Virus record (IMG/VR): IMGVR_UViG_3300046115_000049
Location: 1-55,937 of that record
Origin: a virus
DNA length: 55,937 nt
Direction: 5' to 3' (one strand)
The first letter of the stretch is position 1, and each line of letters starts with the position of its first letter. The notes under the pieces were generated by a model that was not told where the DNA came from, did no database searches, and worked only from the letters and a program-made list of their open reading frames with translations. Positions 2,344 to 55,937 of this stretch are shown one piece after another. The position numbers were made by a program, and so were the translations under genes.

Positions 2344-2544
2344 GTGAGGTATAGTGATCATTGTCGTAAGTACCAAACAGTGCGACGAAGCAGGTTGCGC
2401 GCAGCGGGGCGATGCACCGGATGTACGGAACTGAACGATCGCCCGAATAAGAGCGAGTGCAGCGGGTGCGCCGAGATACGAAAATTCAAGCTGGCGGCTA
2501 GAGAAATGAGGAACGATGGCGACAGACGACAAGGACAAGGATAG
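2344..2544 (+). CDS. Small basic Cys-rich (zinc-ribbon-like) protein
   Basis: 66 aa with a GTG start. It has paired cysteines (GRCTGC ... CSGC) and is Arg/Lys rich. Its 3' end overlaps the next gene start. Confidence 0.45.
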   Translation: MRYSDHCRKYQTVRRSRLRAAGRCTGCTELNDRPNKSECSGCAEIRKFKLAAREMRNDGDRRQGQG

Positions 2545-3331
2545 AGATAAAGGTAAGACTGGTGCCACTCCCGGGATGCCGGGTGATGAACACGTGTTCG
2601 GGTCAGGCGCGAAGCGATCAGAGGTGATGCCATTCTACTCGGCTATCCCAGTGGTGTCGCTCCGGCGAGTAGCGCTTCGCGCAACTGGTGCTCCAAAAGG
2701 CGGTGCACCCCTATTGGCCGAGGGGTTCAAATACGAAGGAGGTAGTCGCGGGTACGGGTACGGAAATTGGCGACGTGGCCTACCCATGGAAGACACCTTG
2801 AACCACATATACAACCATCTCGGCAAGTGGCGTACTGCCATCGAGTCGGGTAAGCCGCCCAACGATGATGATCTCGCCGCGATCGCTTGGGGCGTGCTGA
2901 TGCCGCTGATGACGTTCGAGCGCGACTATGCTGACCAGTATGCTATGCGCAATTCGCTACTGGGCGCGGGGAAGACGGCCGACGTCATCGATGCGGAGAT
3001 GCAGGAAAGATGGGGAGCTAAGCTACTAATTCACCCGCTGGCACCCGAGAAGCGGATGGGCACCGAGGGCGCGGCACTGAAAGCGGAAGACGAGCAGTGC
3101 GCGCCTCGGCTATCTGATATCGTCCCGGTTCGTCCGCTTGACTGGTGTGGGTGCACACGTACTGAGCGAGACAGGAACCGCGCTAGTATTCCCGCCAATC
3201 GTCGCATCGTGGAACAGGACGCCGGGGGCAATCTTCGCACTGCTGCTACGAACTGTGAAGACTGCATCGGGACAGGCAGGCTGTACCTCAAGCCGCCGGT
3301 TAGTGGAGGAGATGATGAACGACAACACTAG
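2516..3331 (+). CDS. Hypothetical protein with a DUF5664-like / dATP-dGTP diphosphohydrolase N-terminal-type domain
   Basis: 271 aa with SD gaggaa. The block GSGAKRSEVMPFY..IPVVSLRRVA..GYGYGNWRRGLP..LNHIYNHL..ESGKPP.DDDLAAIAWGVLM resembles the phage domain pattern K..L.P...L..VA....KY...NW..G......RH......ESG..HL. This pattern is recalled from memory and was not searched. The C-terminus is Cys-rich. Confidence 0.4.
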   Translation: MATDDKDKDRDKGKTGATPGMPGDEHVFGSGAKRSEVMPFYSAIPVVSLRRVALRATGAPKGGAPLLAEGFKYEGGSRGYGYGNWRRGLPMEDTLNHIYNHLGKWRTAIESGKPPNDDDLAAIAWGVLMPLMTFERDYADQYAMRNSLLGAGKTADVIDAEMQERWGAKLLIHPLAPEKRMGTEGAALKAEDEQCAPRLSDIVPVRPLDWCGCTRTERDRNRASIPANRRIVEQDAGGNLRTAATNCEDCIGTGRLYLKPPVSGGDDERQH

Positions 3332-3638: not shown

Positions 3639-3888
3639 CATCGCCGTATTCCGCGACGAGAACGGACACGGACTCATGTTCGTAGTTCACGGTGGGCACC
3701 CCTCTTATGGGCCGTGGGTATGTTGCGCGTGTCACTCCGTCATCCGTGCTCTAGACGAGGTACGGATACATGTGGTCAAAATGCGCCCAGTGCACAATAA
3801 GACGTGGTGCAACGTCGTGAGTAGCAGTGATGTGGAGTTCCTGCTAGATATAGGGATTGTGGCGGAGATGCCATGGCCGAAATCGTAG
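3625..3888 (+). CDS. Hypothetical protein
   Basis: 87-aa ORF that overlaps both neighbours by a few codons (operon-style packing). Confidence 0.45.
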   Translation: MPPSNIAVFRDENGHGLMFVVHGGHPSYGPWVCCACHSVIRALDEVRIHVVKMRPVHNKTWCNVVSSSDVEFLLDIGIVAEMPWPKS

Positions 3889-6533
3889 TACTCGGGCGCG
3901 GTCGCGTACCTAACGACGTCGTGATCCTCGGCGAGGGTCCCGGCGAGAGCGAGGCACGTCGAGGGCAACCGTTCGTAGGTCGTGCCGGTAGTGAACTAGA
4001 TAATTATCTCGCGATTGCGGGTGGGGCTTCGTCGCGCTCGTACTACGTTACTAACATCAACAAGACATACGTGGAGGGTAATCCCGACCCTACCCCCGCG
4101 CTAATAGAACGGTGGACCCCCCACCTCCTCGACGAATTGAAGCGTGTAAACCCTCGTTTCATTATCGCCGCTGGCCTCCACGCCACCCGGTGGCTCCTTG
4201 GGGACTGGACTACCATGGAGCTTGTGCACGGAATTCCTCACCGCAGTGACCGCGTACCGGGCGCGGTCGTACTCCCGTGCCACCATCCCGCAGCAGGCTT
4301 CTACGATGACGAGGCACGGGCGCTGTGTATGTACGACTTCCGCGTTGCCGTAGCGGCGATAAAGGGCAAGATGAAGAATCTTGCTCCCCCGGTAGATGAG
4401 TTTGAGGGGCAGGAAGAGTATTACGACGTCACCGGGCTGCAGACCGTCCACGTGCTACGCGAGGCGCGTAAGTCGGGGCTTACAGTCATCTCGCTCGACA
4501 CGGAAGGAATCCCGGGCGAGGAGTGGTCCATCCAGTTCTCGCTCGTTCCCGGCACCGGGTATGTGCTCCGCTGCCAGCACGTCGATTTCGTCGCTGGTAT
4601 CAACGCGATCGTCCAGTTTTGTCACTACCCCGAAGTCGTAGTGGTGATGCAGAACTCCATGTACGATCTGGAGATGTGTCGCGGCATGGGTGCGGACCTG
4701 TTCGACGTCCGCCTATATGATACCCGCTATTCGGCTTACGCGATGAGGCTCGAGCCGCAAGCGTTGAAGCCACTTCTCTATCGCTGGTGCGGCATGAGGC
4801 AGGCGTCGTACGAGGATACGGTCGGGCCAGCCGGGCTAGCTAAACAGCTCGACTATCTCGACCGCGTGGCCATGATGGAGTGGCCTGTACCCGAAATGCG
4901 GATCGAGTACAAGAATGACGGGACGTTCCATCCTTACACGCCTCAACCAGTTACGAAGAGGGCGCTGGCCATACTTAACGACTACTACTCCGGGAAATTG
5001 GACAAGGACGGCGATCGTACTGACCCGCTTGCGCGTTGGAAGAAGGTGGACACGATACAGCGCCGCATGGTCGAGGCGATGATAGGGCGGATGCCGATAG
5101 GGACGTTGGCTGATATTCCCCTGAAGGAGGCTATTCACTATGCCGCCCGCGACGCTGATGGTACTCTGCGGTTATATTACCGCCAGCTTGGCGCTAACAA
5201 GGCCCAAGGACTCGTATCCCTAGTACAGGATGGTAATGGCGTACTTCCTGTGTTCGAGGAGATGCAGTCTACTGGGATGCGCCCTAAACGCGACTACTGC
5301 GTCGCTAAACAGGAGGAGATGACCGTCTACATGAACAAGGTCGGCGCCCGCATCTCCGTAAAGTACTACGGTGGGCAGCCGTTCAACCCCAACTCGCCCG
5401 ATAAGGTCGCAGCCTTGATGAGGCGCAGGGGACTGGTGGGCGAGAAGCGCAGCAAGATTACCAGGAAGATGTCTACCGGTAAGAAGTCGATAGAGCACTT
5501 GCGCTACTCCGACGACGCGATGAAGGACGTCATCGACTGGCGTGAGCACCAGAAGATGCGGGATTCGTTCTACGGGCCAATCGTGGAGCGGATAGATGAC
5601 GCGGTTGCGGCGGGGGCGAACCCGGCTACGTTCCGCATCCGCACCAAGATTAACCCCTACAAGGTCGTCAGTCGCCGAATCAGCAGCAGTGATCCTAACC
5701 TTACCGCCATCCCCGTCCGCAATGAGCTAGGAACGGAAGTGCGTGACGGGTTCGAGGCGGAGGAGGGATGTGAACTCGGCTCGTGGGACCTGAGTCAAAT
5801 CGAGATGCGCTACATGGCGCACGTCTCGCGCGATCCTCTACTTGTTAAGTTCTTCGGCGATCCTAAACTAGACGTCCACTGCGAGACTGCCGCTCGCATA
5901 TTCGGGCTCAAGATTAACGATAAGGCCGATAATAAAGCGGAGCGATACGCCAATATCGACGAGATGGAGCACCGCTACCCGTCTAAACGCGCAGGATTCG
6001 GCATCATCACGAACATACAGGGGATGGGACTACTTGACCAGTTACGTATGTTCGGCTGCAAGGGCTGGACCGAAGATCGCTGCGACGAGCTTATTGATAA
6101 CTGGCTCGGTGTATACAAAGGCGTCAAGGTGTTCATGGACGAATCGAAGCGCGAGGCGCAGCAGTTCGGGGTGATACGGGATGCATGGGGTATGCCGCGC
6201 TATCTCCCCGGTGTGTGGTCCCCGGATGCCAAGGTCCGCGCCGAAGCCGAGAGGGCAGCGTCGTCCATGAGGATTCAGGGCGGCGCACAGGGTATGATCC
6301 AGAAGTCGATGATCTGGCTCAAGCCGTACGTCCGCGCCATGCAACAAGCCGGACTTCGCGTACGCTGGGTGCTGCAGATCCACGACGAGATCATCATGGA
6401 GTTTCAAGAGGACCTGTGGGATACGATCAACCCACTCATCATTGAGGGTCTTACCGAGCACAGTCTCAAGCTTATCGTCCCTGTTAAGGCGTCGGGTTCG
6501 CACGCCAAGACGTGGGGTAAATTGAAAGGATAA
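3873..6533 (+). CDS. polA: Family-A DNA polymerase with a 3'-5' exonuclease and an N-terminal uracil-DNA-glycosylase-like (family 4 type) domain
   Basis: 886 aa. UDG-like motifs: GEGPGESEARRGQPFVGRAGSEL and HHPAA. Exonuclease motifs: ISLDTEG, NSMYDLEM, YAARDAD. Pol A motifs: DLSQIEMRYMAH (A), RYPSKRAGFGIITNIQG (B), LQIHDEII (C). Confidence 0.85.
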   Translation: MAEIVVLGRGRVPNDVVILGEGPGESEARRGQPFVGRAGSELDNYLAIAGGASSRSYYVTNINKTYVEGNPDPTPALIERWTPHLLDELKRVNPRFIIAAGLHATRWLLGDWTTMELVHGIPHRSDRVPGAVVLPCHHPAAGFYDDEARALCMYDFRVAVAAIKGKMKNLAPPVDEFEGQEEYYDVTGLQTVHVLREARKSGLTVISLDTEGIPGEEWSIQFSLVPGTGYVLRCQHVDFVAGINAIVQFCHYPEVVVVMQNSMYDLEMCRGMGADLFDVRLYDTRYSAYAMRLEPQALKPLLYRWCGMRQASYEDTVGPAGLAKQLDYLDRVAMMEWPVPEMRIEYKNDGTFHPYTPQPVTKRALAILNDYYSGKLDKDGDRTDPLARWKKVDTIQRRMVEAMIGRMPIGTLADIPLKEAIHYAARDADGTLRLYYRQLGANKAQGLVSLVQDGNGVLPVFEEMQSTGMRPKRDYCVAKQEEMTVYMNKVGARISVKYYGGQPFNPNSPDKVAALMRRRGLVGEKRSKITRKMSTGKKSIEHLRYSDDAMKDVIDWREHQKMRDSFYGPIVERIDDAVAAGANPATFRIRTKINPYKVVSRRISSSDPNLTAIPVRNELGTEVRDGFEAEEGCELGSWDLSQIEMRYMAHVSRDPLLVKFFGDPKLDVHCETAARIFGLKINDKADNKAERYANIDEMEHRYPSKRAGFGIITNIQGMGLLDQLRMFGCKGWTEDRCDELIDNWLGVYKGVKVFMDESKREAQQFGVIRDAWGMPRYLPGVWSPDAKVRAEAERAASSMRIQGGAQGMIQKSMIWLKPYVRAMQQAGLRVRWVLQIHDEIIMEFQEDLWDTINPLIIEGLTEHSLKLIVPVKASGSHAKTWGKLKG

Positions 6534-7624: not shown

Positions 7625-8281
7625 ATGGCTGATACTTCCGATCCCCTCATCTCCTGTACCAGCGGCATGGACGACAATGCCGCCTCTCGTATGAACGATA
7701 CCTTGGCGCTCTCGCACGTGCCGCGATGGTGCATCGTTCCTCACTTTCGCCCGCAATCCGTGGCGGACCACACCTTCCGCGTTCTCGTCATCGTGCGGGA
7801 GCTAGCTCATATGGTCGGAGTGCCACTCACGATGGACGATTTCTTGGCTATCCTCACTCACGATAGTGCTGAGTCCAAGTCCGGCGACATTTCTTCCCCG
7901 TTCAAGCGGGCGCTGCTCCGGTCAGACAGGGATACGTCCGTCGCCGGTGCCATCACGACCGCCGAGCTGGAGGCGTGTGACTGGTTAAATTACGAGCCCG
8001 TCATGGAGTACGCGTCTACCGGTCCTGTCCCTCGTGCGGGGGACGTGTTTAAAGCCGCCGATCTTATCGAGGCGTATACCTTCATCTCTACCTACGGCGT
8101 CGGCCGTCATGCCGCGTTCGTCGCAGATAACATGATGACCAACGCCATCATGGAAATTCATCCGCCTACATTACAGACGGCGGCGCTCACGGCCATTCGT
8201 AACATCAATAGTGATAGGGGGCGGCTATGGGACGGGCAAGTAGTGGCGCGTGTCACGACGGGTCGAGGGCGACGCAGCTAG
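7625..8281 (+). CDS. HD-domain phosphohydrolase (YfbR / 5'-deoxynucleotidase-like); candidate DatZ-type dATPase
   Basis: 218 aa. HD-superfamily ligands are present in HVPRW...SVADHTFRV and ILTHDSAESKSGDISSP. Confidence 0.65.
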   Translation: MADTSDPLISCTSGMDDNAASRMNDTLALSHVPRWCIVPHFRPQSVADHTFRVLVIVRELAHMVGVPLTMDDFLAILTHDSAESKSGDISSPFKRALLRSDRDTSVAGAITTAELEACDWLNYEPVMEYASTGPVPRAGDVFKAADLIEAYTFISTYGVGRHAAFVADNMMTNAIMEIHPPTLQTAALTAIRNINSDRGRLWDGQVVARVTTGRGRRS

Positions 8282-35100: not shown

Positions 35101-36669
35101 TTACCCCATCCACCCTGTGGACGACGGTCGCTGCCCCGCGTATGGACCAGATGATACACTAATCTCGGGTTTTCGCGCAAGCCACTCGATCCCGGCCGCT
35201 ATCATATATCGCATCGCGTCCATCAAGTGATCATTCTTCTTAACCACGCGTCCCTTGGAATCACGTCGATACATGCGATATTCACTGAAGAAGTTGCGCA
35301 GAGTCTTGCGGACACGAATGCGCTGGCCAGTAATGAGGGTCCACACCTCGAATATGCCCGCCTCTACGCCGTTAGGAGCGAAATCGAGCTCCAGACCCAG
35401 AGACGTATATAGCTCCATTAACTGCTTGCCGTCGGCCTGCGAGCGTCCATTGGCGGCGGGGTCGATACGCCCGGGTATCCACGCGCCAGCTGCCTTGATA
35501 CCAGTTGCGTGAACAGACGGCTCGGCATGCGAACCGTAATGCTCGTGATACAGATGCCACGTCGCTGTGTCCGGGTCATACGCCCCCCAGATTGCAGCAG
35601 TCCAGTTCCATCCGACATCAAGGCCATACCCTCGCGGCCAGTGCGGCGGGATCTCGAACACATCCTCCTTGACCTCCTCCTCAGATACGGGGTAGATAAT
35701 ACCGGCACCCAGCGCAGGTATACCTCGCGTACGCGCGTTACGCTGATATTCAGGGATGGACGAAATCATCTGCTGTCGTGCCTGCTCCGATAGGTGCGGA
35801 ACTTCGTCCCATGCAATTATGGTAACGGACTTATTGCGCAGCTCTAAGGGAGTGGCCTTCTTCTCAGCTGGGTCGACGACCGCATCAGGCAGTACAGGGT
35901 CATCCTCGTCGTTCAGGCTACCTAGAATCGCTTGGTCGGCGGGAACACGGTCGCCACGACCTACATTCGTGACGACGACCGCTTGCTTCAACCACGCGTC
36001 CACGAAAGGGGTCAATCCCTCAATCGGCGTGAACGTGACCATGAGGATACCTTCACACGTAAGCGTACGCATTAGACATTCGGTATATATATCCTCAGGA
36101 CATTCCTCATCCAGCCAGATGAGGTGCTTCGCCGTTCCTTGAAACGCCTCGCGGCGCTGATCGTAAGACTTGAACTGGATGGTCGAGGTGCCGCTCGTGA
36201 TATGCGTTACATAGATCGACTCAACAGCGTGAGGTATCGAATTCTTCGCGGGCGCGTGCTTGATCAGGTGCGCGGGTATAAATCCTGTCTTAGGAGCGGA
36301 CGGTATCTGACCATACAGCGCCAACTGCTGAATGTCGCGAGTAGTTGTAGCCGTATCTCCGGCGGTCCACGCGTCGATGGGGTGGTTGAACTTCCGTCCC
36401 TCCCACCATGGTGGGTAGATACCTGTCATATGGGCCGAAGTTTCGTAGGCCGCATCATCGGTCTTGCCGACGCGATTGCCCCCGATAAGTAGGCGCTCCG
36501 GGAATGTCAATCCCAGTCGGAAGTACTCCACCGCACCTAGGTATAGGTCGCGGCGAAGCGGGCCGTCATCCAAGAAGTACCGGGCGGACTTGTAGTTAAG
36601 GCGCCTAGCTAGTTCCGCCTCAAGGACGGAAACGTCATTAATGATAGCTACACGGTCCTTAAGGTTCAT
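35101..36669 (-). CDS. terL: Terminase large subunit
   Basis: 522 aa. Walker A is LIGGNRVGKTD, Walker B is HLIWLDEECPEDIY, and TGIYPPWWEGRKF is the terminase N-domain pattern. The C-terminal half is nuclease-like. Confidence 0.85.
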   Translation of the reverse strand: MNLKDRVAIINDVSVLEAELARRLNYKSARYFLDDGPLRRDLYLGAVEYFRLGLTFPERLLIGGNRVGKTDDAAYETSAHMTGIYPPWWEGRKFNHPIDAWTAGDTATTTRDIQQLALYGQIPSAPKTGFIPAHLIKHAPAKNSIPHAVESIYVTHITSGTSTIQFKSYDQRREAFQGTAKHLIWLDEECPEDIYTECLMRTLTCEGILMVTFTPIEGLTPFVDAWLKQAVVVTNVGRGDRVPADQAILGSLNDEDDPVLPDAVVDPAEKKATPLELRNKSVTIIAWDEVPHLSEQARQQMISSIPEYQRNARTRGIPALGAGIIYPVSEEEVKEDVFEIPPHWPRGYGLDVGWNWTAAIWGAYDPDTATWHLYHEHYGSHAEPSVHATGIKAAGAWIPGRIDPAANGRSQADGKQLMELYTSLGLELDFAPNGVEAGIFEVWTLITGQRIRVRKTLRNFFSEYRMYRRDSKGRVVKKNDHLMDAMRYMIAAGIEWLARKPEISVSSGPYAGQRPSSTGWMG

Positions 36670-37286
36670 TACTCTACCTTCACCGCAATCGCCTCGATCG
36701 CGAGAGGTTTAGTAACTGCGACGCGATTGGCCAAGGCCGCAATGCGGTCCTTGAGTTCGTCATCACTAAGCTTAGCGGCTTCCTCGGGGGTGATGGAGAC
36801 GAGCGCACCTAGAACCTCCTGTTTAGTGGGGGCATCTAAGCCCAGTAGACGGCTGCGTCGTTCCATCACCCTCAAGACTGTTGCGACCGATGCTACGTCA
36901 CCCTTGACGGCGAATTTCCATAAACCGGCCATCATTTCGTCGCACCGCTGCAGCTCCATTTCGCGCACCGAAGTAACATCTTCAGCTGTCTGCTCGCGAA
37001 GAGCCATGAGTTCAGCCATGATGTACTCGTATGCCGTAGTTACGGACACCTTCAGGGCTGCGCCTATCTGCCGATAAGACTGGCCCTGCTTGCGCAATTC
37101 GAAGGCAATGGCGCGAGCCTCGGTAAGGCGAGCTTGCTCGGACTTAGGGACGCCGCTGCGCTTATCCTTGCGTTTACGAATTTGATGGCGCGGGCGCACG
37201 GGCGGAACGAGCGCCAACGTAGCGGCCGTCTTCTTGCCCGGCCTAGAGGAGCTGGAGTTGCCCACGCGTCCTCCGTCCCTGCACAT
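36669..37286 (-). CDS. terS: Terminase small subunit (HTH-containing); start uncertain (ATG 37286 or GTG 37265)
   Basis: The HTH is QGQSYRQIGAALKVSVTTAYEYI, followed by a helical oligomerisation-like region. Its stop overlaps the terL start. Confidence 0.65.
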   Translation of the reverse strand: MCRDGGRVGNSSSSRPGKKTAATLALVPPVRPRHQIRKRKDKRSGVPKSEQARLTEARAIAFELRKQGQSYRQIGAALKVSVTTAYEYIMAELMALREQTAEDVTSVREMELQRCDEMMAGLWKFAVKGDVASVATVLRVMERRSRLLGLDAPTKQEVLGALVSITPEEAAKLSDDELKDRIAALANRVAVTKPLAIEAIAVKVE

Positions 37287-37524
37287 GGTATGTAGGTTGA
37301 TCTAGAATGTAGCCGTATAGGCCGTCGAGCGTTACATCCGCCGCGATAGCGATACGGTAAGCTACGTGAAGAGATGCGCCCTTGCGACCCTGTAGGACTC
37401 GTGATACGTGCTGTGGGGATAGCCCCGCCTTACGCGCAATCCGGCGATACTGGCCCCCAGCTAGCGCAACGTTAGGGTCGCGCCCTCGACGCCGCACGAA
37501 CTGACGAGCTAATCTAGATTTCAT
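37243..37524 (-). CDS. XRE/Cro-type helix-turn-helix transcriptional regulator
   Basis: The HTH is QYRRIARKAGLSPQHVSRVLQGRKGASLHVAYRIA. ATG 37524 is preferred over GTG 37542 because a promoter-like element lies immediately upstream. Confidence 0.6.
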   Translation of the reverse strand: MKSRLARQFVRRRGRDPNVALAGGQYRRIARKAGLSPQHVSRVLQGRKGASLHVAYRIAIAADVTLDGLYGYILDQPTYHVQGRRTRGQLQLL

Positions 37525-37739
37525 AGCCCAGCAGCGTACCACAATGAGGGGGTGTCCGTCAAGCTACGTATCTTCGAGGCACCTCTGTGCGCATCCTGGC
37601 GCCAAGGTTCGTTCGCCCATTCGAGATTATCCTAATTCCCGTAATGTCGGACGCTGCGCGTCCCACATTACATAAGTGTAAGGGCGATAACACTTATCGG
37701 TGGTTCCCCCCATACCCCCTTCCCGCCGCAGGCGGATCT

Positions 37740-37769
37740 ATTGTAACACGGGGGTGGTCGGCCTGTCAA
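37740..37769 (-). promoter_or_regulatory. Near-consensus sigma70-type leftward promoter (TTGACA-N18-TACAAT)
   Basis: The minus strand reads cctaTTGACAggccgaccacccccgtgtTACAATaga. It points towards the HTH/terminase arm. Confidence 0.55.
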
Positions 37770-37811
37770 TAGGTATGATTAATGCACCCGCGTAACCGAT
37801 ATCGTCATTGC

Positions 37812-37840
37812 GTGATGCAGGCGCGAAGCGCCTGCATCAC
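37812..37840. promoter_or_regulatory. Perfect 13-bp stem / 3-nt loop hairpin (gtgatgcaggcgc-gaa-gcgcctgcatcac)
   Basis: Read directly. It lies in the divergent control region next to an AT-rich stretch with GGTATA/TATACC inverted repeats. There is no U-tract on either side. Confidence 0.7.
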
Positions 37841-38131
37841 TTATTAAGATCGTATGATAATGTGGGCTTGCGTTGCGATAAAGTGAAAGAATGTGCGTTT
37901 GGCGGGTTATATATGGGGAGGTGGTATATGGACTATATACCCGGGGGGTATCCCTAGGTATAGGTCGGTCATTGTTTTTGCTAAGGGGGACTATCCATCG
38001 CGAGGACCGACCGCCGAATACCCAGATCTAGGAATGCGGCGAATGCAAGCCTCGTGCCCGCGATGGTTGGCACGCGTCTTGTTCGCCTCGATGGTGCGCC
38101 TTGCGCTTTCAAGATTCGTGCCAAGATCGGT

Positions 38132-38147
38132 TGGCATCACTCTTGCA
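38132..38147 (+). promoter_or_regulatory. Sigma54-type -24/-12 element (TGGCATcactcTTGCA)
   Basis: It has GG-N10-GC spacing with TGGCA and TTGCA flanks. The -24 half overlaps the palindrome TGCCAA-N6-TTGGCA (38119-38136). Confidence 0.45.
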
Positions 38148-38175
38148 GGGTTGGCCTTCGTGCGCCGGGGACTGC

Positions 38176-38191
38176 TGGCATCAGGCTTGCA
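38176..38191 (+). promoter_or_regulatory. Sigma54-type -24/-12 element (TGGCATcaggcTTGCA)
   Basis: A second copy 44 bp downstream. The two copies agree at 17 of 19 positions (tggcatcaNNcttgcagg). Confidence 0.45.
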
Positions 38192-38313
38192 GGCTGGCGT
38201 GGCGAATCGGCGCGACCCTGCAACCCTCGTGCCGCTCGTTTGTCTGCAATGCTCGTGCCGTGCGTTTTGCCCCTTTGGTCTTTGCCCTCGCTTTGCCCCT
38301 TGCCGGTCGCTCG

Positions 38314-38334
38314 GGTATGTCAGCCGCTTGACAC
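38314..38334. repeat. 21-bp direct repeat copy 1 (GGTATGTCAGCCGCTTGACAC) containing the dyad TGTCA-N6-TGACA
   Basis: Read directly. An identical copy lies exactly 100 bp downstream. Confidence 0.9.
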
Positions 38335-38413
38335 TGCGTGGCCGCTCGGCCACAGCGAAGCGACAGGCGAAAATCCCGCAAGGACGGGCATCGGCCGCTG
38401 GCACGAGCCTTGA

Positions 38414-38434
38414 GGTATGTCAGCCGCTTGACAC
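38414..38434. repeat. 21-bp direct repeat copy 2 (GGTATGTCAGCCGCTTGACAC)
   Basis: Identical to 38314-38334. Each copy is followed 64-75 bp later by GCCGCTGGCACG(A/G)GCC. Confidence 0.9.
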
Positions 38435-38473
38435 CCCCCTTCGGCGCAGGCCCGGACGACGGGATCGCGCCGC

Positions 38474-38489
38474 TGGCACGGGCCATGCA
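38474..38489 (+). promoter_or_regulatory. Sigma54-type -24/-12 element (TGGCACgggccATGCA) about 83 nt upstream of the first rightward gene
   Basis: It has GG-N10-GC spacing and a TGGCACG -24 box. Weaker copies with GT or GA at -12 lie at 38068-38083 and 38399-38414. Confidence 0.4.
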
Positions 38490-38571
38490 TTCTTGATCGG
38501 TGCCCCCGGCGCTGCGGCGCTCGGGGGTCCGGTCCGGATTCCCCGGATCGGTTCCTGATTGGTGGTCCCTG

Positions 38572-38904
38572 ATGACCTCGATTCCCGCGTCCGCTCTCCC
38601 GAAGCTGCCCGCTCTCCCGCGTCTCCCGCGCAAGCAGAAGGATCCGCGCCCGTGCGCGTGTGGCTGCGGCGCGCCCACCCGATCGACGTGGTTCCCCGGG
38701 CACGACGCGATCGCCCACGCTTGGGCGCTGCGCGTCGTCCGTGGCGCCAAGGGCGCGGACGGCAAGCCGATCACCGCTGCTCCTGCCCCGCTGACCGCCT
38801 GCGTGGCGAGGATCGCCGCGAAGATGCGCGAGGCGGCGAAGTCCGCCGCGCCGAAGTCCGCCCCTGTCGCGCCCGCGCCCGCGCCGGTCGCCAAGGTCGG
38901 CTGA
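38572..38904 (+). CDS. CxCGCG/PGHDA zinc-knuckle protein with Pro/Lys/Ala-rich tails (paralog 1)
   Basis: ATG at 38572 begins MTSIPASALPKLPALPRLPRKQKDPRPCACGCGAPTRSTWFPGHDAIAHAWALRVVRG, followed by an AAPKSAPVAPAPAPVAK tail. Confidence 0.6.
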   Translation: MTSIPASALPKLPALPRLPRKQKDPRPCACGCGAPTRSTWFPGHDAIAHAWALRVVRGAKGADGKPITAAPAPLTACVARIAAKMREAAKSAAPKSAPVAPAPAPVAKVG

Positions 38905-42267: not shown

Positions 42268-42468
42268 ATGGAATCCCGAATCATCAGTTTCGCCCGCGAG
42301 AAGGAAACCAAGAACGCCGTCCGCTTCCAGGAGGTGCCCGAGGAGGGTCAGCCGGAGGCGATCGGCTCCCTCTACATCAAGAAGTGGGTGGTCGGAGACG
42401 CGCAGACCCTGACCATCGAGATCTCGGGCGACGCCCCGAAGAGCGGCAGCGGCAAGCCGAAGAAGTAG
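42268..42468 (+). CDS. Hypothetical small protein
   Basis: ATG lies 6 nt after tgaggtg. It encodes MESRIISFAREKETKNAVRFQEV...LYIKKWVVGDAQTLTIEI. Confidence 0.55.
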   Translation: MESRIISFAREKETKNAVRFQEVPEEGQPEAIGSLYIKKWVVGDAQTLTIEISGDAPKSGSGKPKK

Positions 42469-42565
42469 CGACGTCAGGCGACGCGACAGGTACGGCTGGT
42501 GGGTGCGATGTGCTCCACCGGCCTCGACCTGTCGGGAGAGGCGACATGTGGACCTATGCAGGGGC

Positions 42566-42595
42566 TTGCAAGCGCCAATGCAGCCGTGGTTTAAT
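42566..42595 (+). promoter_or_regulatory. Sigma70-type promoter with extended -10 (TTGCAA-N18-TTTAAT)
   Basis: gcTTGCAAgcgccAATGCagCCGTGGTTTAATtgcc has the same architecture as 40278-40307. Confidence 0.5.
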
Positions 42596-42695
42596 TGCCC
42601 CGTTGATTGCGGCAGCGGTGCCCGTCCGACACCGCCTGTCCGATGCTCGAAGCGTGGATTCGGACATCGTTAACCGAACCGACCGAGGTGATACC

Positions 42696-43154
42696 ATGAA
42701 GATCAAGACGCAACCCACCGCCATTCCCGCTGCCGATCCCGTCGTCCCGGCAGAGGTTGTTGACACCGTTCGCCCGTCCGCCGAGACGGATCGCAAGCTG
42801 GCGAACTTCGCTCACCGCAAGACGCAGCTCGAAAAGGCGGGTGCGCGAGCCAAGTCGGCGAAGTCGACCGCCGTGTACCCGCCCACTCGCGCGATCAAGC
42901 GCGATGCTGCTTCGACCCACGGCCTCCCGGCGCTCCCGAAGCTCCCCAAGGCTGCTCGGAAGCCGAAGCCGCCCAAGCCGTGTGAGTGCGGCTGTGGCGG
43001 ACAGACGCGCGGCGGTCGCTTCCTTCCGGGACATGATGCCCGTCTCCACGCTTGGGCGCTTCGGGTCGAGCGGGGGCACATGAAGGCGAACGAGGTTCCT
43101 GCCCCGCATACCGCTGCGGTGGCGGCGTATCTCAAGACGCGGAAGGCCAAGTAA
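42696..43154 (+). CDS. CxCGCG/PGHDA zinc-knuckle protein (paralog 2)
   Basis: ATG at 42696 lies after gaggtg. It contains ...HGLPALPKLPKAARKPKPPKPCECGCGGQTRGGRFLPGHDARLHAWALRVERG. Confidence 0.6.
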   Translation: MKIKTQPTAIPAADPVVPAEVVDTVRPSAETDRKLANFAHRKTQLEKAGARAKSAKSTAVYPPTRAIKRDAASTHGLPALPKLPKAARKPKPPKPCECGCGGQTRGGRFLPGHDARLHAWALRVERGHMKANEVPAPHTAAVAAYLKTRKAK

Positions 43155-43873: not shown

Positions 43874-44833
43874 ATGGCAGCATCACAGGCGCAAACACGG
43901 AAGTCCAGAACGTCGCCGTATTCGCGTTCAGCTCCACCGCCCATGCCCCCGAAAGCGGCATCGGTGGCAGCGGCGCGGGTACGGGCGAAACTCAATAAGG
44001 TCGCCGCGATTGATCGGTTCCTGACCCCGCCCCTACGATCCAAGGTGATGGTCGTGTCCGATCGGGTGGAGCGAATGCCGTACGCGCCGATCGAGGAGGG
44101 GCGGATCGTCAATTGGGATGGACGCGTGTGGTTCGTAGGGCTGGTTAACGCCTCGCGTGCGCGACTAGACCCGGTGATGGCGAATCGCGTCGTTCAGGCC
44201 GATCCAGTGAGCGGCCGTACGTTCCTGTCATACGGATCGTCGGTCAACATCTGTCCCACTTCCACGCTGGAGGACGCAGAACTCGAAGAGTTAGACGAGC
44301 TTGCTCTCAACCGTCTGGTCCGGTTGCAGGAGCAGCACGAATCCGAGCAGACCAGACGAATGTCGGGCGTAACCCGACGAGAGCGAACCCTCGAATTCAA
44401 CGAGGAAGAAGAAGGAGAAGAGAACATGGAGTCAGCGGCACGAACGACACCGCGTAAGGGGGCAACCAATGCGGTTCCCCTCCCCGTGGCGACGCAGACG
44501 AAGACGGACAAGTCCCGGGCGCAGCGCGTCCGCGAACTCGCAGCGGCGAAGGCGGGAACGACCAAGGCGAAGGCGGCGAAGTCGAAGGGTCCGGCCGAGC
44601 GCGACAAGGAGTGCAAGTGTGGCTGCGGCGAAGCGACATCGAAATACTTCGTCCCCGGTCACGATGCGCGCTTCAAGGGCTGGATGCTCAAGATCGAGCG
44701 CGGCACGGCGAAGCGCGAGGAGCTGCTCGCCGCCGAGGTGATCGCCCAATACAAGTGGGTGAAGCGCGGCGAGGGCATGGTCACCACGACCAACTACAAG
44801 GGCGAGTCCCATCAGGGCTACGCCGCGAAGTAG
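43874..44833 (+). CDS. Hypothetical protein with a C-terminal CxCGCG/PGHDA zinc knuckle (paralog 3)
   Basis: 319 aa. It has an acidic middle region, a Lys/Ala-rich stretch, then DKECKCGCGEATSKYFVPGHDARFKGWMLKIERG. Confidence 0.6.
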   Translation: MAASQAQTRKSRTSPYSRSAPPPMPPKAASVAAARVRAKLNKVAAIDRFLTPPLRSKVMVVSDRVERMPYAPIEEGRIVNWDGRVWFVGLVNASRARLDPVMANRVVQADPVSGRTFLSYGSSVNICPTSTLEDAELEELDELALNRLVRLQEQHESEQTRRMSGVTRRERTLEFNEEEEGEENMESAARTTPRKGATNAVPLPVATQTKTDKSRAQRVRELAAAKAGTTKAKAAKSKGPAERDKECKCGCGEATSKYFVPGHDARFKGWMLKIERGTAKREELLAAEVIAQYKWVKRGEGMVTTTNYKGESHQGYAAK

Positions 44834-44985
44834 TCGAATGCGACGGTCGGCGCACACCTAGTAGGGCTCGACCTGCGACTGAGGGGAAGTCTCGCAGGAC
44901 CAGACGCCGGGCTGGTGTAGGGTGAAATTCCCAACGATTCTAGTGGGCACGGAACCACGAGTAACCCGGAGTGATTAGGTGGACC

Positions 44986-45189
44986 ATGCTTGAAGAGCCT
45001 AGACCTTACCTCGTCGACGCCGCCAAACAGCTAGAGTCGGCGGCACGACGGTTGCGCCGTATCGGACTGGGCGGTGAATATACGCCGGTAGCGATACGTA
45101 TGATGCGTGAAGCGATCTCGCTAATCGACGCGGCCGAAGCCCGAATTAGGGGTGCCGCTGACGAAATGGTGGCGCGGACGCGGCCTTGA
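44986..45189 (+). CDS. Hypothetical helical protein
   Basis: ATG lies 4 nt after aggtgg. 67 aa. Confidence 0.45.
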   Translation: MLEEPRPYLVDAAKQLESAARRLRRIGLGGEYTPVAIRMMREAISLIDAAEARIRGAADEMVARTRP

Positions 45190-45338
45190 CGCGGGCGAGG
45201 ACGTGACTGGGAGGCGGGGGTGAGGCGGACCGGGCGGTCGCGTCGTCTACGCGGTCCCGGCCGCGTTCAGGAGCGGGTTATCCCGGGCGGACCGGGCGAT
45301 GGATCGGGCGGACTGGGGCCGAACGTGGGTAGGAGGAT

Positions 45339-45452
45339 ATGATGCCAGTAGCAGTAAGCGTGCAGGCGTGCATCGCGTGGGTGATGGTCGGTCTGTGCGT
45401 TGGACTAGGGTGGGCGGTCGCGCACTGGTTGATGAGCAAGGTGTTAAAGTAG
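45339..45452 (+). CDS. 37-aa single-helix membrane peptide (not in the ORF track)
   Basis: ATG lies directly after gtaggaggat. It encodes MMPVAVSVQACIAWVMVGLCVGLGWAVAHWLMSKVLK. Confidence 0.45.
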   Translation: MMPVAVSVQACIAWVMVGLCVGLGWAVAHWLMSKVLK

Positions 45453-45656
45453 AAGGAGCTTGAGAAGGGCCGGACTCAGCGAAACGCGCTGTACCAACCT
45501 GCGTCAATCCCGGCCGTCCACCCCGGGACCCTCCGAGGATGGAGGCGCGAGACGCGGGTCCGGCCCCCTGAATTATGGTAACGGAGAACGACCGACCGAA
45601 CCGAGATGACGAATGGCGATGGATAGGCAAGCGATCTTCAACAGGAGGGTAACACG

Positions 45657-45956
45657 ATGGACGCAAGAGTGATACGCACGTATGGCCCGATCGAACTGCG
45701 CAGGAAGGCGGAGGGTACACAGGACATCCCGATGCCGCGAGACGCGATCATCCTCGATCTGGCGGGGGACTATGATAGAGAGGCGATGGTAGGTATCGCC
45801 GCCATCGTAGACCCGGAGAAGCCACTGGCTATGCGAAGATTCCGCGTATGTAAAGAGGACGCGGCGATACCGCGTTACCCCGGCCGCTACATCGGCAACG
45901 TATACGGACGAGCGTTCGTGTTCGAAGTCGAAGTGCCGACCGTGATGAAGGACTAG
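45657..45956 (+). CDS. Hypothetical protein
   Basis: ATG lies after caggaggg. 99 aa. Confidence 0.55.
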   Translation: MDARVIRTYGPIELRRKAEGTQDIPMPRDAIILDLAGDYDREAMVGIAAIVDPEKPLAMRRFRVCKEDAAIPRYPGRYIGNVYGRAFVFEVEVPTVMKD

Positions 45957-55022: not shown

Positions 55023-55937
55023 CGGCATCAACATTACGCTGTCGCCTGACGGCAGGTATGCGTCAGTCGGCAACGATCGTTCACAGCTCGTGGAGCTGGC
55101 GTACGATTCGACCGATATTCGCGTGATCGAGCACCGCGTCATCGGTGAATCCGCTCCCTCTCCTGTCCAATCGTATTTCGGTCAGTGGCTCGACAATCGG
55201 AAACTGGTATTCTATCAGGATGGCTATGACGGTATCCCCGGTAGACGCCGATTCCGCGTTTACGATACGATTACCGCTGGAGTTAGTGACCTGATGGTAG
55301 CGCCGGGAGTCGATCTACTCGCCGTCCGTGACAATCAGGTATTTGAGACGCACGTCGGTATGTATCGCCATGTAACATGTGAGAGATGGCAATTCTGGTG
55401 CAACCACGCGAACAATGTGCTGCACGCGCGGAGCCCAACCGGCGTAGACTATATGAAAGCGGTTACCGAGCAGCCGGGAATGGTAGATGGAATCCGTCAT
55501 CTCATCGCTGCCCCAGGCGGCAATGCGCTGTTCTTCGACGGCTACCATATCCAAGTGTGGCACCCGCAGACCGGCCTGAACAGGTCGGTGTCGATCGTCA
55601 CTCGCAGTGACCGATACCCGTGGGGCGAGGGGCTCGGATGGTGCTGGCGGCGACCCGCTGATGGGACCGCATGGCTGGCCACGTGGGTGACGGACCAGCC
55701 GTGGGGACGAACGTTCATACTCATCCGTCCTATGGGCGCGGGGCTGTGCATCTGGCAGGAGTTCGGAGGAGTAGATTGGCTGCACGCCGCGACGATGGAC
55801 CACGACCGGGTAGTAGTGGCCGGATCATACAACGCGGTGTCTTACGCCACAATAGTAGATACGCGTATGGGACTGGGGATATTCGCCCCGTCCACGCCTA
55901 GCTCCGGACCCGGACCCGGACCTGTGGAGCCGCCCCC
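55000..55937 (+). CDS. Wrap-around CDS (357 aa in total; continues as 1-263): beta-propeller-like protein with a 15-Pro tract and an amphipathic C-terminal tail
   Basis: ATG lies 5 nt after aggagg. I translated it by hand with no stop up to the window end, and the frame is continuous with ORF 6-263 after collapsing the 127-nt overlap. The N-terminus is MERLQIPNGINITLSPDGRY. It is absent from the ORF track because it has no stop inside the window. Confidence 0.75.
   Translation, partial: MERLQIPNGINITLSPDGRYASVGNDRSQLVELAYDSTDIRVIEHRVIGESAPSPVQSYFGQWLDNRKLVFYQDGYDGIPGRRRFRVYDTITAGVSDLMVAPGVDLLAVRDNQVFETHVGMYRHVTCERWQFWCNHANNVLHARSPTGVDYMKAVTEQPGMVDGIRHLIAAPGGNALFFDGYHIQVWHPQTGLNRSVSIVTRSDRYPWGEGLGWCWRRPADGTAWLATWVTDQPWGRTFILIRPMGAGLCIWQEFGGVDWLHAATMDHDRVVVAGSYNAVSYATIVDTRMGLGIFAPSTPSSGPGPGPVEPP
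55811..55937. repeat. Terminal direct repeat (second copy of nt 1-127)
   Basis: Identical sequence read at both window ends. Confidence 0.95.

Follow-up and report, generated by a model that had tools for sequence, protein, structure and literature searches.

The stretch analyzed here is IMG/VR virus record IMGVR_UViG_3300046115_000049, positions 1 to 55,937 (the window, meaning the whole 55,937-nt stretch). It is a complete phage contig from a circular assembly, in which the first 127 nt (1-127) are repeated at 55811-55937, giving a unit of 55,810 bp; the repeat is an assembly overlap, and the contig is circular or terminally redundant. The leftward arm runs from 37524 to 8539 and encodes a helix-turn-helix (HTH_3) protein, a TerS-like protein, TerL, portal, coat and tail proteins and an endolysin. 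The rightward arm runs from approximately 38572 across the contig junction to 8281 and carries small early genes, a helicase, a methylase, a family A DNA polymerase and nucleotide-metabolism genes. Since the leftward genes start at 37524 and the rightward genes at approximately 38572, positions 37543-38571 are the divergent control region and the sole point where both arms part, as a first-pass annotation of the sequence had proposed. This region contains nine sites resembling the -24/-12 promoter element of sigma-54 (RpoN), and these sites are the subject of this report.

The nine sites lie between 38044 and 38489. They are copies of (T)GGCAY-N5-(T/A)TG(C)(A) with the consensus TGGCACGAGCCTTGCA, five on the plus strand (38068, 38132, 38176, 38399 and 38474) and four on the minus strand (38044, 38108, 38219 and 38245). 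The exact GG-N10-GC elements given in the first-pass annotation for 38132, 38176 and 38474, and its weaker copies at 38068 and 38399, were all found in the sequence. However, that annotation placed every site on the plus strand and took the copies of CTCGTGCC for half-sites, and in both respects it was mistaken: the CTCGTGCC/TTCGTGCC copies at 38044, 38108, 38219 and 38245 are full GGCACG-N4-TTGCA/TTGAA motifs on the minus strand.

Sites were scored against a 23-point consensus. Six of the nine have GG-N10-GC within TGGCAC-N5-TTGCW, each with a score of at least 22/23, while sites 2, 3 and 8 are without the C at -12. Site 1 (GGGCACGAGGCTTGCA, 38044-38059, minus strand, score 22/23) stands back to back with site 2 (TGGCACGCGTCTTGTT, 38068-38083, plus strand, score 20), and site 3 (TGGCACGAATCTTGAA, 38108-38123, minus strand, score 20) stands back to back with site 4 (TGGCATCACTCTTGCA, 38132-38147, plus strand, score 22). 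In both pairs the GG-to-GG distance is 11 bp and the head-to-head start-to-start distance is 24 bp. Site 5 (TGGCATCAGGCTTGCA, 38176-38191, plus strand, score 22) forms a convergent pair and a 23-nt inverted repeat with site 6 (CGGCACGAGGGTTGCA, 38219-38234, minus strand, score 22), which is joined to site 7 (CGGCACGAGCATTGCA, 38245-38260, minus strand, score 22) by a 26-nt tandem duplication. Site 8 (TGGCACGAGCCTTGAG, 38399-38414, plus strand, score 19) has a 30-nt repeat in common with site 9 (TGGCACGGGCCATGCA, 38474-38489, plus strand, score 22). Sites 4 and 5 (38132 and 38176) are also repeats of each other, 44 bp apart as first described, but the repeat is 18 nt long with 89 % identity and not 19 nt. 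The palindrome TGCCAA-N6-TTGGCA is present at 38119-38136, again as listed previously.

Within the duplicated pairs 4/5, 6/7 and 1/6 the differences are confined to the spacer, and pair 8/9 differs also at the -12 element. Judged from these comparisons, selection is predicted to act only on the positions contacted by sigma-54. The extra sites could also be recent local duplications of an early promoter with no function of their own, as they pair up by common flanks (sites 8/9, 6/7 and 4/5) and the related contig L161, described below, does without them. However, the differences within pairs avoid the consensus positions, a second relative (L186) has an independent array with unrelated spacers, arrays of this kind recur in dozens of unrelated contigs, and some 400 bp of useless DNA is seldom retained by phage genomes. 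We therefore consider this explanation highly improbable.

The density of sites was compared with background, a scan that the first-pass annotation had called for. When the strict motif GGCAY-N5-TTGCA was searched on both strands of the 56-kb window, five matches were found, all in the control region and none elsewhere. All six matches scoring at least 22/23 are likewise in the control region, with none elsewhere in the genome. Under a first-order Markov null for 38000-38571, a mean of 0.008 matches scoring at least 22 was obtained (maximum of 1 in 3000 trials) against 6 observed, and 0.19 matches scoring at least 20 were expected against 8 observed. Other phage loci totaling 1.31 Mb gave 17 matches scoring at least 22, or 0.013 per kb. 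When one mismatch was allowed, the whole-genome count was unremarkable (11 against 5.2 expected), and the striking part is the clustering. Chance falls far short of explaining such a cluster.

The relatives that proved useful, with L161, L186 and L174-176 as the informative ones, were obtained with TerS and the early protein as queries and then by contig look-ups. TerL searches of IMG/VR, metagenome contigs and GTDB genomes gave no relative above approximately 53 % identity, and the control-region DNA showed no similarity to INPHARED phages. The contexts of P0021, P0027, P0018 and P0003 were unrelated. The TerS search returned L161, a 10,972-nt Logan contig with the same gene order (TerL 81 %, coat 80 % and TerS 60-63 % identical), whose P22-type portal and coat are homologous to those of the window; the phage has P22-type head genes. 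Only two non-coding blocks align between L161 and the window, one comprising a sigma-70 promoter and a hairpin (see below) and the other approximately 40 nt around site 9. Just one sigma-54-type site, TGGCACCGATCTTGCT, is present in L161; it faces the homologue of the first early gene at a distance of approximately 60 nt.

The early-protein search returned L186 (early protein 75 % identical), which has a 758-nt non-coding stretch with six sigma-54-type sites in both orientations. Two of these are perfect and stand back to back with 10 bp between their GGs, where the window pairs have 11 bp. Its proximal site (gccgcTGGCACGAGTGGTGCA; TGGCACGAGTGGTGCA in the comparison with site 9) is the positional homologue of site 9; L186 also has its own dyad repeat (CCCCAACCGCTTGTGGTTT, two copies), an AT-rich patch and a T-rich tract. 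A third relative, L197, contains ten perfect sites and three copies of the dyad CCACAAGCCGTTGTGG, and its proximal site (TGGCACGGGGCTTGCA) lies approximately 77 nt before a putative GTG start at approximately 1003 that is preceded by an AAGGAGG box.

The homologues of site 9 in L161, L186 and L197 keep its position and orientation, each being 55-80 nt before the first rightward gene. When the four proximal sites were aligned, the only invariant positions were CGC..TGGCAC, TGC and a GGT near the inferred start (+1), and the spacer and flanks diverge. Such a footprint would be the one expected of a real sigma-54 early promoter. In the window, 83 nt separate the end of site 9 (38489) from the ATG at 38572, in agreement with the distance first given for the last copy, and a start predicted near 38500 would leave a 72-nt leader. 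Site 9 faces a gene at a workable distance; the other eight do not in any simple way, and the four minus-strand sites face an arm already served by a sigma-70 promoter. Of the nine, site 9 is the strongest candidate for a functional early promoter dependent on sigma-54. The earlier -24/-12 reading gains comparative support from its conservation in these three relatives, and also from the retention of TGGCAC and TGC in the more distant contigs L094 and L085.

Two identical 21-mers (GGTATGTCAGCCGCTTGACAC) with the dyad TGTCA-N6-TGACA are located on the plus strand at 38314-38334 and, exactly 100 bp later, at 38414-38434, which agrees with the first description. There are exactly two copies; no other match was found at up to three mismatches (0 expected), and the dyad occurs only at 38314 and 38414. 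Relative to the predicted start of site 9, 21-mers 1 and 2 are centered at approximately -175 and -75; relative to that of site 7, 21-mer 1 is centered at approximately -92. The 21-mers contain TTGACA, but a sigma-70 reading was ruled out as no -10 element follows them. They are probably regulator sites, either an operator or an upstream activating sequence.

The dyads are lineage-specific: TGTCAGCCGCTTGACA in the window, CGTCAGCGCCTTGACG in L161, AACCGCTTGTGGTT in L186 and CCACAAGCCGTTGTGG in L197. The 16-bp dyad occurs twice in the window, and its relative in L161 keeps GTCA-N6-TGAC while the outer bases change symmetrically. The HTH protein (37243-37524) is 62 % identical to its L161 homologue, with a nearly identical recognition helix. 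This comparison of regulator and dyad covers the window and L161. The alternative offered by the first-pass annotation, that the motifs of the region are operators for the adjacent HTH protein, better suits the 21-mers, whose dyads vary from one lineage to another. It is at odds with the sigma-54-like motif, which stays constant among highly dissimilar phages. Most simply, the dyads would serve regulators specific to each phage; the likelier binder of the 21-mers is the HTH protein encoded by the phage itself, and a host enhancer-binding protein is the less likely one.

We also considered whether most, or even all, of the nine sites function as sigma-54 promoters, tandem and divergent, which would serve both arms with a host enhancer-binding protein at the 21-mers between sites 6, 7 and sites 8, 9. 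Measured upstream from the predicted starts, the centers of the 21-mers are approximately 92 bp from that of site 7, 118 bp from that of site 6, 100 bp from that of site 8 and 75 bp from that of site 9, and distances of about 75-118 bp are usual for enhancers. In L094 and L085, a minus-plus-minus trio of sites is accompanied by palindromes, located where upstream activating sequences of the first site would be. In addition, GTCA-N6-TGAC in the window has the outer half-sites of the proposed FleQ box GTCaNTAAAtTGAC (PMC6120874). This likeness is only a lead, since the dyad center is GC-rich, unlike the FleQ box, and the FleQ consensus is called unreliable by that same paper (PMC6120874). Moreover, polymerases would clash or collide at the two pairs that stand back to back at 11 bp and at the convergent pair 5/6, and the inferred start of site 8 (approximately 38425) falls within 21-mer 2. 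A conserved sigma-70 promoter is already available to the leftward arm, and none of the sigma-54 sites in L161 points leftward; dyads that differ among related phages fit a phage regulator better than a host activator; and the orientation at the edges of other arrays looks random. Because four of the nine sites point leftward, two pairs have only 11 bp between their GGs and orientation in the wider class ignores genes, most copies are unlikely to act simply as promoters. The row of tandem rightward promoters suggested by the first-pass annotation is not what the region contains, and we regard promoter function for all or most sites as unlikely.

The leftward arm is served by an element that the first-pass annotation overlooked, a near-consensus sigma-70 promoter on the minus strand (37769-37740; TTGACA-18 nt-TACAAT with a TG extension, 11/12 matches) facing the HTH/terminase arm. 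It is the sole TTGACA-N16-18-TAnnnT in the whole genome and lies approximately 210 nt before the HTH gene. L161 keeps both hexamers with a different spacer. The BLASTn block at 37688-37846 is 75 % identical to L161. The inferred 5' leader of the leftward transcript (37525-37733, minus strand) contains a 14-bp hairpin (37641-37671) and a block that is near-invariant in L161 (approximately 37688-37735). Over approximately its first 50-60 nt (window 37688-37735; L161 2595-2540), the predicted sigma-70 transcript is almost identical in these two phages, whose proteins are only 60-80 % identical, and the sequence of the hairpin further down the leader differs between the two. The near-identity of the leader between phages with such divergent proteins suggests that it is regulatory, for example an antitermination or regulator-binding site. 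Upstream of the promoter there is a perfect 13-bp stem with a GAA loop (37812-37840, 100 % complementary), and L161 has a hairpin with the same loop and stem ends.

The remaining elements of the control region were mostly listed by the first-pass annotation and are present. An AT-rich patch with GGTATA-type repeats (37905-37965) includes the dyad GGTATAT-N5-ATATACC at 37923-37941 and two of the six TATATA hexamers of the genome; approximately 80 bp separate it from site 1, and comparable patches occur in L161, L186, L094/L085 and L007. A pyrimidine-rich tract on the plus strand (38262-38305) contains TTTGCCC three times, and comparable T/C-rich tracts occupy the same relative place in L161 and L186. 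The long open reading frames (ORFs) across 37543-38571 had been judged non-coding, and this is borne out: none has a Pfam match, and no ORF is conserved and no gene is called at the equivalent place in L161. The region has no Rfam family at gathering thresholds and no tRNA by ARAGORN.

Three distant contigs, L094, L085 and L007, have only TerL (approximately 41-43 % identical) in common with the window, and no shared regulator was found with phmmer (E ≤0.05). Each has a divergent non-coding region of 700-850 nt with sigma-54-consensus sites, three each in L094 and L085 (in the order minus, plus, minus) and one perfect site in L007, and these regions also bear TATAC..GTATA palindromes and GCTTGACA(C) motifs. 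When L094 and L085 were aligned, TGGCAC(G) and TGC were kept at each site and the spacers were rewritten. A non-coding block of approximately 100 nt, upstream of the first gene of the terminase arm, is near-identical in the two contigs (L094 3190-3300; L085 2625-2730). It may be a structured RNA, although it had no Rfam match at E ≤1; with Rfam and ARAGORN blank in the window and Rfam blank here, a structured RNA or tRNA was rejected as an explanation for the region.

IMG/VR was then searched for the back-to-back pair TGCA-N6-GTGCC-N8-11-GGCAC-N6-TGC, and 52 stretches matched. In 33 of these, 4-15 sites scoring at least 20 lie within 600 bp, mostly in alternating orientation. The array-bearing contigs span 32-68 % GC, and the arrays are in ORF-free DNA, often between divergent genes. 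TerL is the only protein family found in more than four loci within 4 kb of the arrays (eight loci and the window). The logo of 203 distinct array sites is TGGCAYR-N3-yTTGCW, which is the sigma-54 consensus. Start-to-start distances peak at 18 bp tail-to-tail and 22-23 bp head-to-head, with a double unit of approximately 40-41 bp. The most regular form of array was observed in L223 (13991-14293; L236 and L191 are the same IMG/VR contig), in which a 41-bp unit of two opposed sites is repeated perfectly in tandem at least seven times, up to the end of the DNA examined. The array in L224 (7720-7780) has, in addition to full sites, TGGCAC/GTGCCA half-sites that have no -12 element (GCTGGCACGATTATTAATCGTGCCAGC is one of them), a hint that the -24 half may be used on its own.

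The motif is constant across phages sharing almost nothing else, which points to a universally conserved host factor as its binder. To our knowledge, sigma-54 is the only factor that recognizes TGGCAC-N5-TTGCW, and we know of no other protein with that recognition sequence. The reading we favor, with moderate confidence, is that the region combines a sigma-54-dependent early promoter (site 9) with an orientation-independent cluster that binds the sigma-54 holoenzyme. This two-part model is preferred because site 9 is promoter-like in position, orientation and footprint, and the other sites are crowded, opposed and indifferent to gene direction.

Under this model the region would have three layers. 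The sigma-70 promoter (37769-37740, minus strand) and its conserved, structured leader would serve the HTH, TerS and TerL arm. The -24/-12 promoter at 38474 would face the first early gene with its start near 38500, and the two 21-mer dyads approximately 75 and 175 bp upstream of that start would bind a regulator. The eight further sites (38044-38414), in both orientations, would bind the host sigma-54 RNA polymerase holoenzyme either way round. The array might act as an antenna that concentrates scarce holoenzyme beside the real promoter, or as a sink that draws sigma-54 off host promoters, and some copies might fire as extra promoters in both directions. The first-pass annotation had proposed titration of an enhancer-binding protein; the titrated partner would instead be the holoenzyme. 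Only about 70 sigma-54 sites are present in the whole genomes of Salmonella, E. coli and Vibrio (PMC3844500), so nine per phage copy could matter, or even outnumber them, once the phage replicates. Proteobacteria, which have rpoN, are the likely hosts, as distant TerL relatives sit in their genomes. The motif content, its statistics, the conservation pattern and the recurrence in other viral contigs are observations; sigma-54 as the binding partner, the firing of site 9, the start positions and the function of the array are inferred from them.

Several points weigh against this model. Sites 2, 3 and 8 carry TTGT or TTGA at the -12 element, and the sites are too tightly spaced for holoenzyme to occupy all of them at once. 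Among the 29 window proteins scanned with Pfam there was no Sigma54_activat match, and no GAFTGA motif was found in window ORFs of at least 45 amino acids or in ORFs near other arrays. Across the wider class, the direction of the outermost site shows no association with the flanking genes (11 vs 10 and 9 vs 9), which argues against a plain promoter role. L161, the closest relative, has the proximal site only, and a repeat family (CTCAACGT(G/C)AGC) replaces sites 1-7, so the array is dispensable or replaceable. Among the members of this family is a palindrome, AAACGTCAGCGCCTTGACGTTT, similar to the core of the 21-mer in the window. Finally, Sinorhizobium phage phiM5, kin of one array-bearing contig, has ATTGCGC-type repeats instead; they pack a non-coding stretch beside its direct terminal repeat (L242, 43100-43650) and suggest that motif arrays are general at this position, with a motif that varies by lineage.

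With no activator encoded, no array in L161 and other repeats in phiM5, a binder other than sigma-54 (an origin or partition protein, for example) has to be taken seriously as a rival. The nine sites would then be iterons or a binding array for a replication initiator at an origin beside the AT-rich patch, or for a partition, packaging or nucleoid-type protein, and the likeness to the sigma-54 consensus would be misleading. Sites in both orientations with dense, regular spacing, the 40-41-bp double unit of the wider class and the indifference of edge sites to flanking genes all suit such an array, as do the AT-rich patch approximately 80 bp from site 1 and the frequent location of arrays no more than 4 kb from TerL. 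Co-evolving initiator/iteron pairs would also account for the other repeat family that L161 has in this position, and phiM5 has yet another repeat in the equivalent region. However, at least 33 contigs, spanning 32-68 % GC and with no common neighboring family but TerL, have an identical set of 12 specified positions, and a phage-encoded specificity should drift as the dyads do. Nor does an iteron array predict that in four phages a single, correctly oriented copy precedes the first early gene by 55-80 nt, and no initiator, ParB-type or other candidate gene was found beside the region. We consider this explanation doubtful, and retain the two-part sigma-54 model.

Sigma-54 promoters are a textbook bacterial system. 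Like those of glnAp2/NtrC and pspA/PspF, the phage sites have TGGCAC(G)-N4/5-TTGCW with exact GG-N10-GC, site 9 faces a gene 72 nt downstream, and dyads lie 75-175 bp upstream. Unlike them, the sites are phage-borne, with no activator gene found. Bacterial promoters of this type are single or at most paired, whereas the phage has nine sites in approximately 450 bp, in both orientations and some 11 bp apart, and arrays in other viral contigs reach 15 sites. The early promoters A1, A2 and A3, clustered at the leading end of T7-type phages, similarly pack host-polymerase sites into a non-coding stretch before the early genes and beside a packaging/structural module. However, they are sigma-70 promoters that point in one direction and need no activator, whereas the phage sites are of the sigma-54 type, point in both directions and, by the rule of that family, would not open without an ATPase. 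Loci that titrate a protein are known from E. coli datA for DnaA and from the incA iterons of plasmid P1 for RepA. There too a cluster of sites is proposed to hold or withdraw a scarce DNA-binding protein, but here the target would be an RNA polymerase holoenzyme and its titration is putative.

Chromatin immunoprecipitation in Salmonella, E. coli and Vibrio has revealed intragenic and antisense sigma-54 sites that are not promoters, with repression and interference as proposed roles (PMC3844500). The phage sites resemble these in an orientation and position that misfit classical promoter use; those sites are scattered singles, approximately 70 per genome, whereas the phage arrays are dense, regular and intergenic. 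CtrA boxes in promoters of Alphaproteobacteria phages (PMC9437464) also place sites for a conserved host transcription protein in a phage control region; they are single operator-like sites for another factor, unlike the arrays described here. The literature consulted described no sigma-54-dependent phage promoter and no arrays of such sites, which is absence of evidence only, its coverage being incomplete. If the arrays bind holoenzyme, they would be a new, DNA-only way for phages to recruit or disarm host polymerase, and infection would be tied to host enhancer-binding signaling. They would also provide a simple sequence signature with which to find such phages and narrow down their hosts.

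The phage bears a gene kit for a 2-aminoadenine genome (Z-genome), as identified from sequence matches. It consists of a PurZ-type adenylosuccinate synthetase (270-1586; PDB matches include the phiVC8 and S-2L PurZ), a MazZ-like dATP/dGTP diphosphohydrolase domain (2516-3331; Pfam match below the family cutoff), a family A DNA polymerase with an N-terminal UDG-like domain (3873-6533) and a DatZ-type HD protein (7625-8281; the only PDB match is S-2L DatZ). MazZ-like genes (Pfam dGTP_diPhyd_N) were also found near arrays in L209 (517-954), L215 (1028-1474), L210 (23-1015) and L232 (approximately 2107-2322), four contigs with no other relationship to the window, whereas 185 control loci (1.39 Mb) had none. 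However, six IMG/VR contigs had no arrays in the 10 kb around PurZ, phiVC8 and Kokobel2 had none either, and for this reason the link between arrays and Z-genomes is unproven and a weak lead. The cultured phages examined (StenR_269 (N4-like), EBPR podovirus 1, phiVC8, Kokobel2, phiM5, MWH-Nonnen-W8red 1 and MW202879) had no arrays. The presence of arrays alongside the Z kit raises the question of how host polymerase reads promoters in 2-aminoadenine DNA. Recognition through G/C contacts with ATP-driven opening might tolerate 2-aminoadenine better than sigma-70 recognition of a -10 element. As a more tentative proposal, alternating dense arrays of sigma-54 sites may be a widespread, undescribed phage cis-element that captures or sequesters host sigma-54 polymerase (an antenna for a nearby sigma-54 early promoter, or a sponge against sigma-54-dependent host responses), possibly tied in this phage to its 2-aminoadenine genome.

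The genes flanking the control region were also characterized. The first leftward gene (37243-37524, minus strand) encodes a small Cro/CI-type HTH_3 protein (Pfam HTH_3 1.6e-6; PHROG repressor and HTH families) and is followed by the TerS-like gene (36669-37286, minus strand) and TerL (35101-36669, minus strand). In a second control island (44833-45657), a sigma-54-like match at 45041 was rejected as it is probably within a small gene. More distant early-protein kin (L169, L174-176 and L187) have GGGACCCA-type motifs and no sigma-54 sites. The motif, GGGACCCA(T)T, is repeated in L174 (4700-5000), L175 (3300-5000), L176 (4600-5000), L169 (4700-5000) and L187 (2100-2630), and a conserved GGCAGGTTCGCCCGGCA-like leader precedes the first early gene in these contigs; the layout is shared with the window, but the control system looks different. 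The first early gene of the window (38572-38904, plus strand) encodes a small protein with the motif CxCGCG...TW.PGHD (phrog_5477), a widespread family; the protein is 63 % identical to its L161 homologue. This domain, for which many homologues exist in uncultured phages, occurs twice in the phage, as the whole 38572-38904 protein and as the C-terminus of a 256-amino-acid protein (42384-43154).

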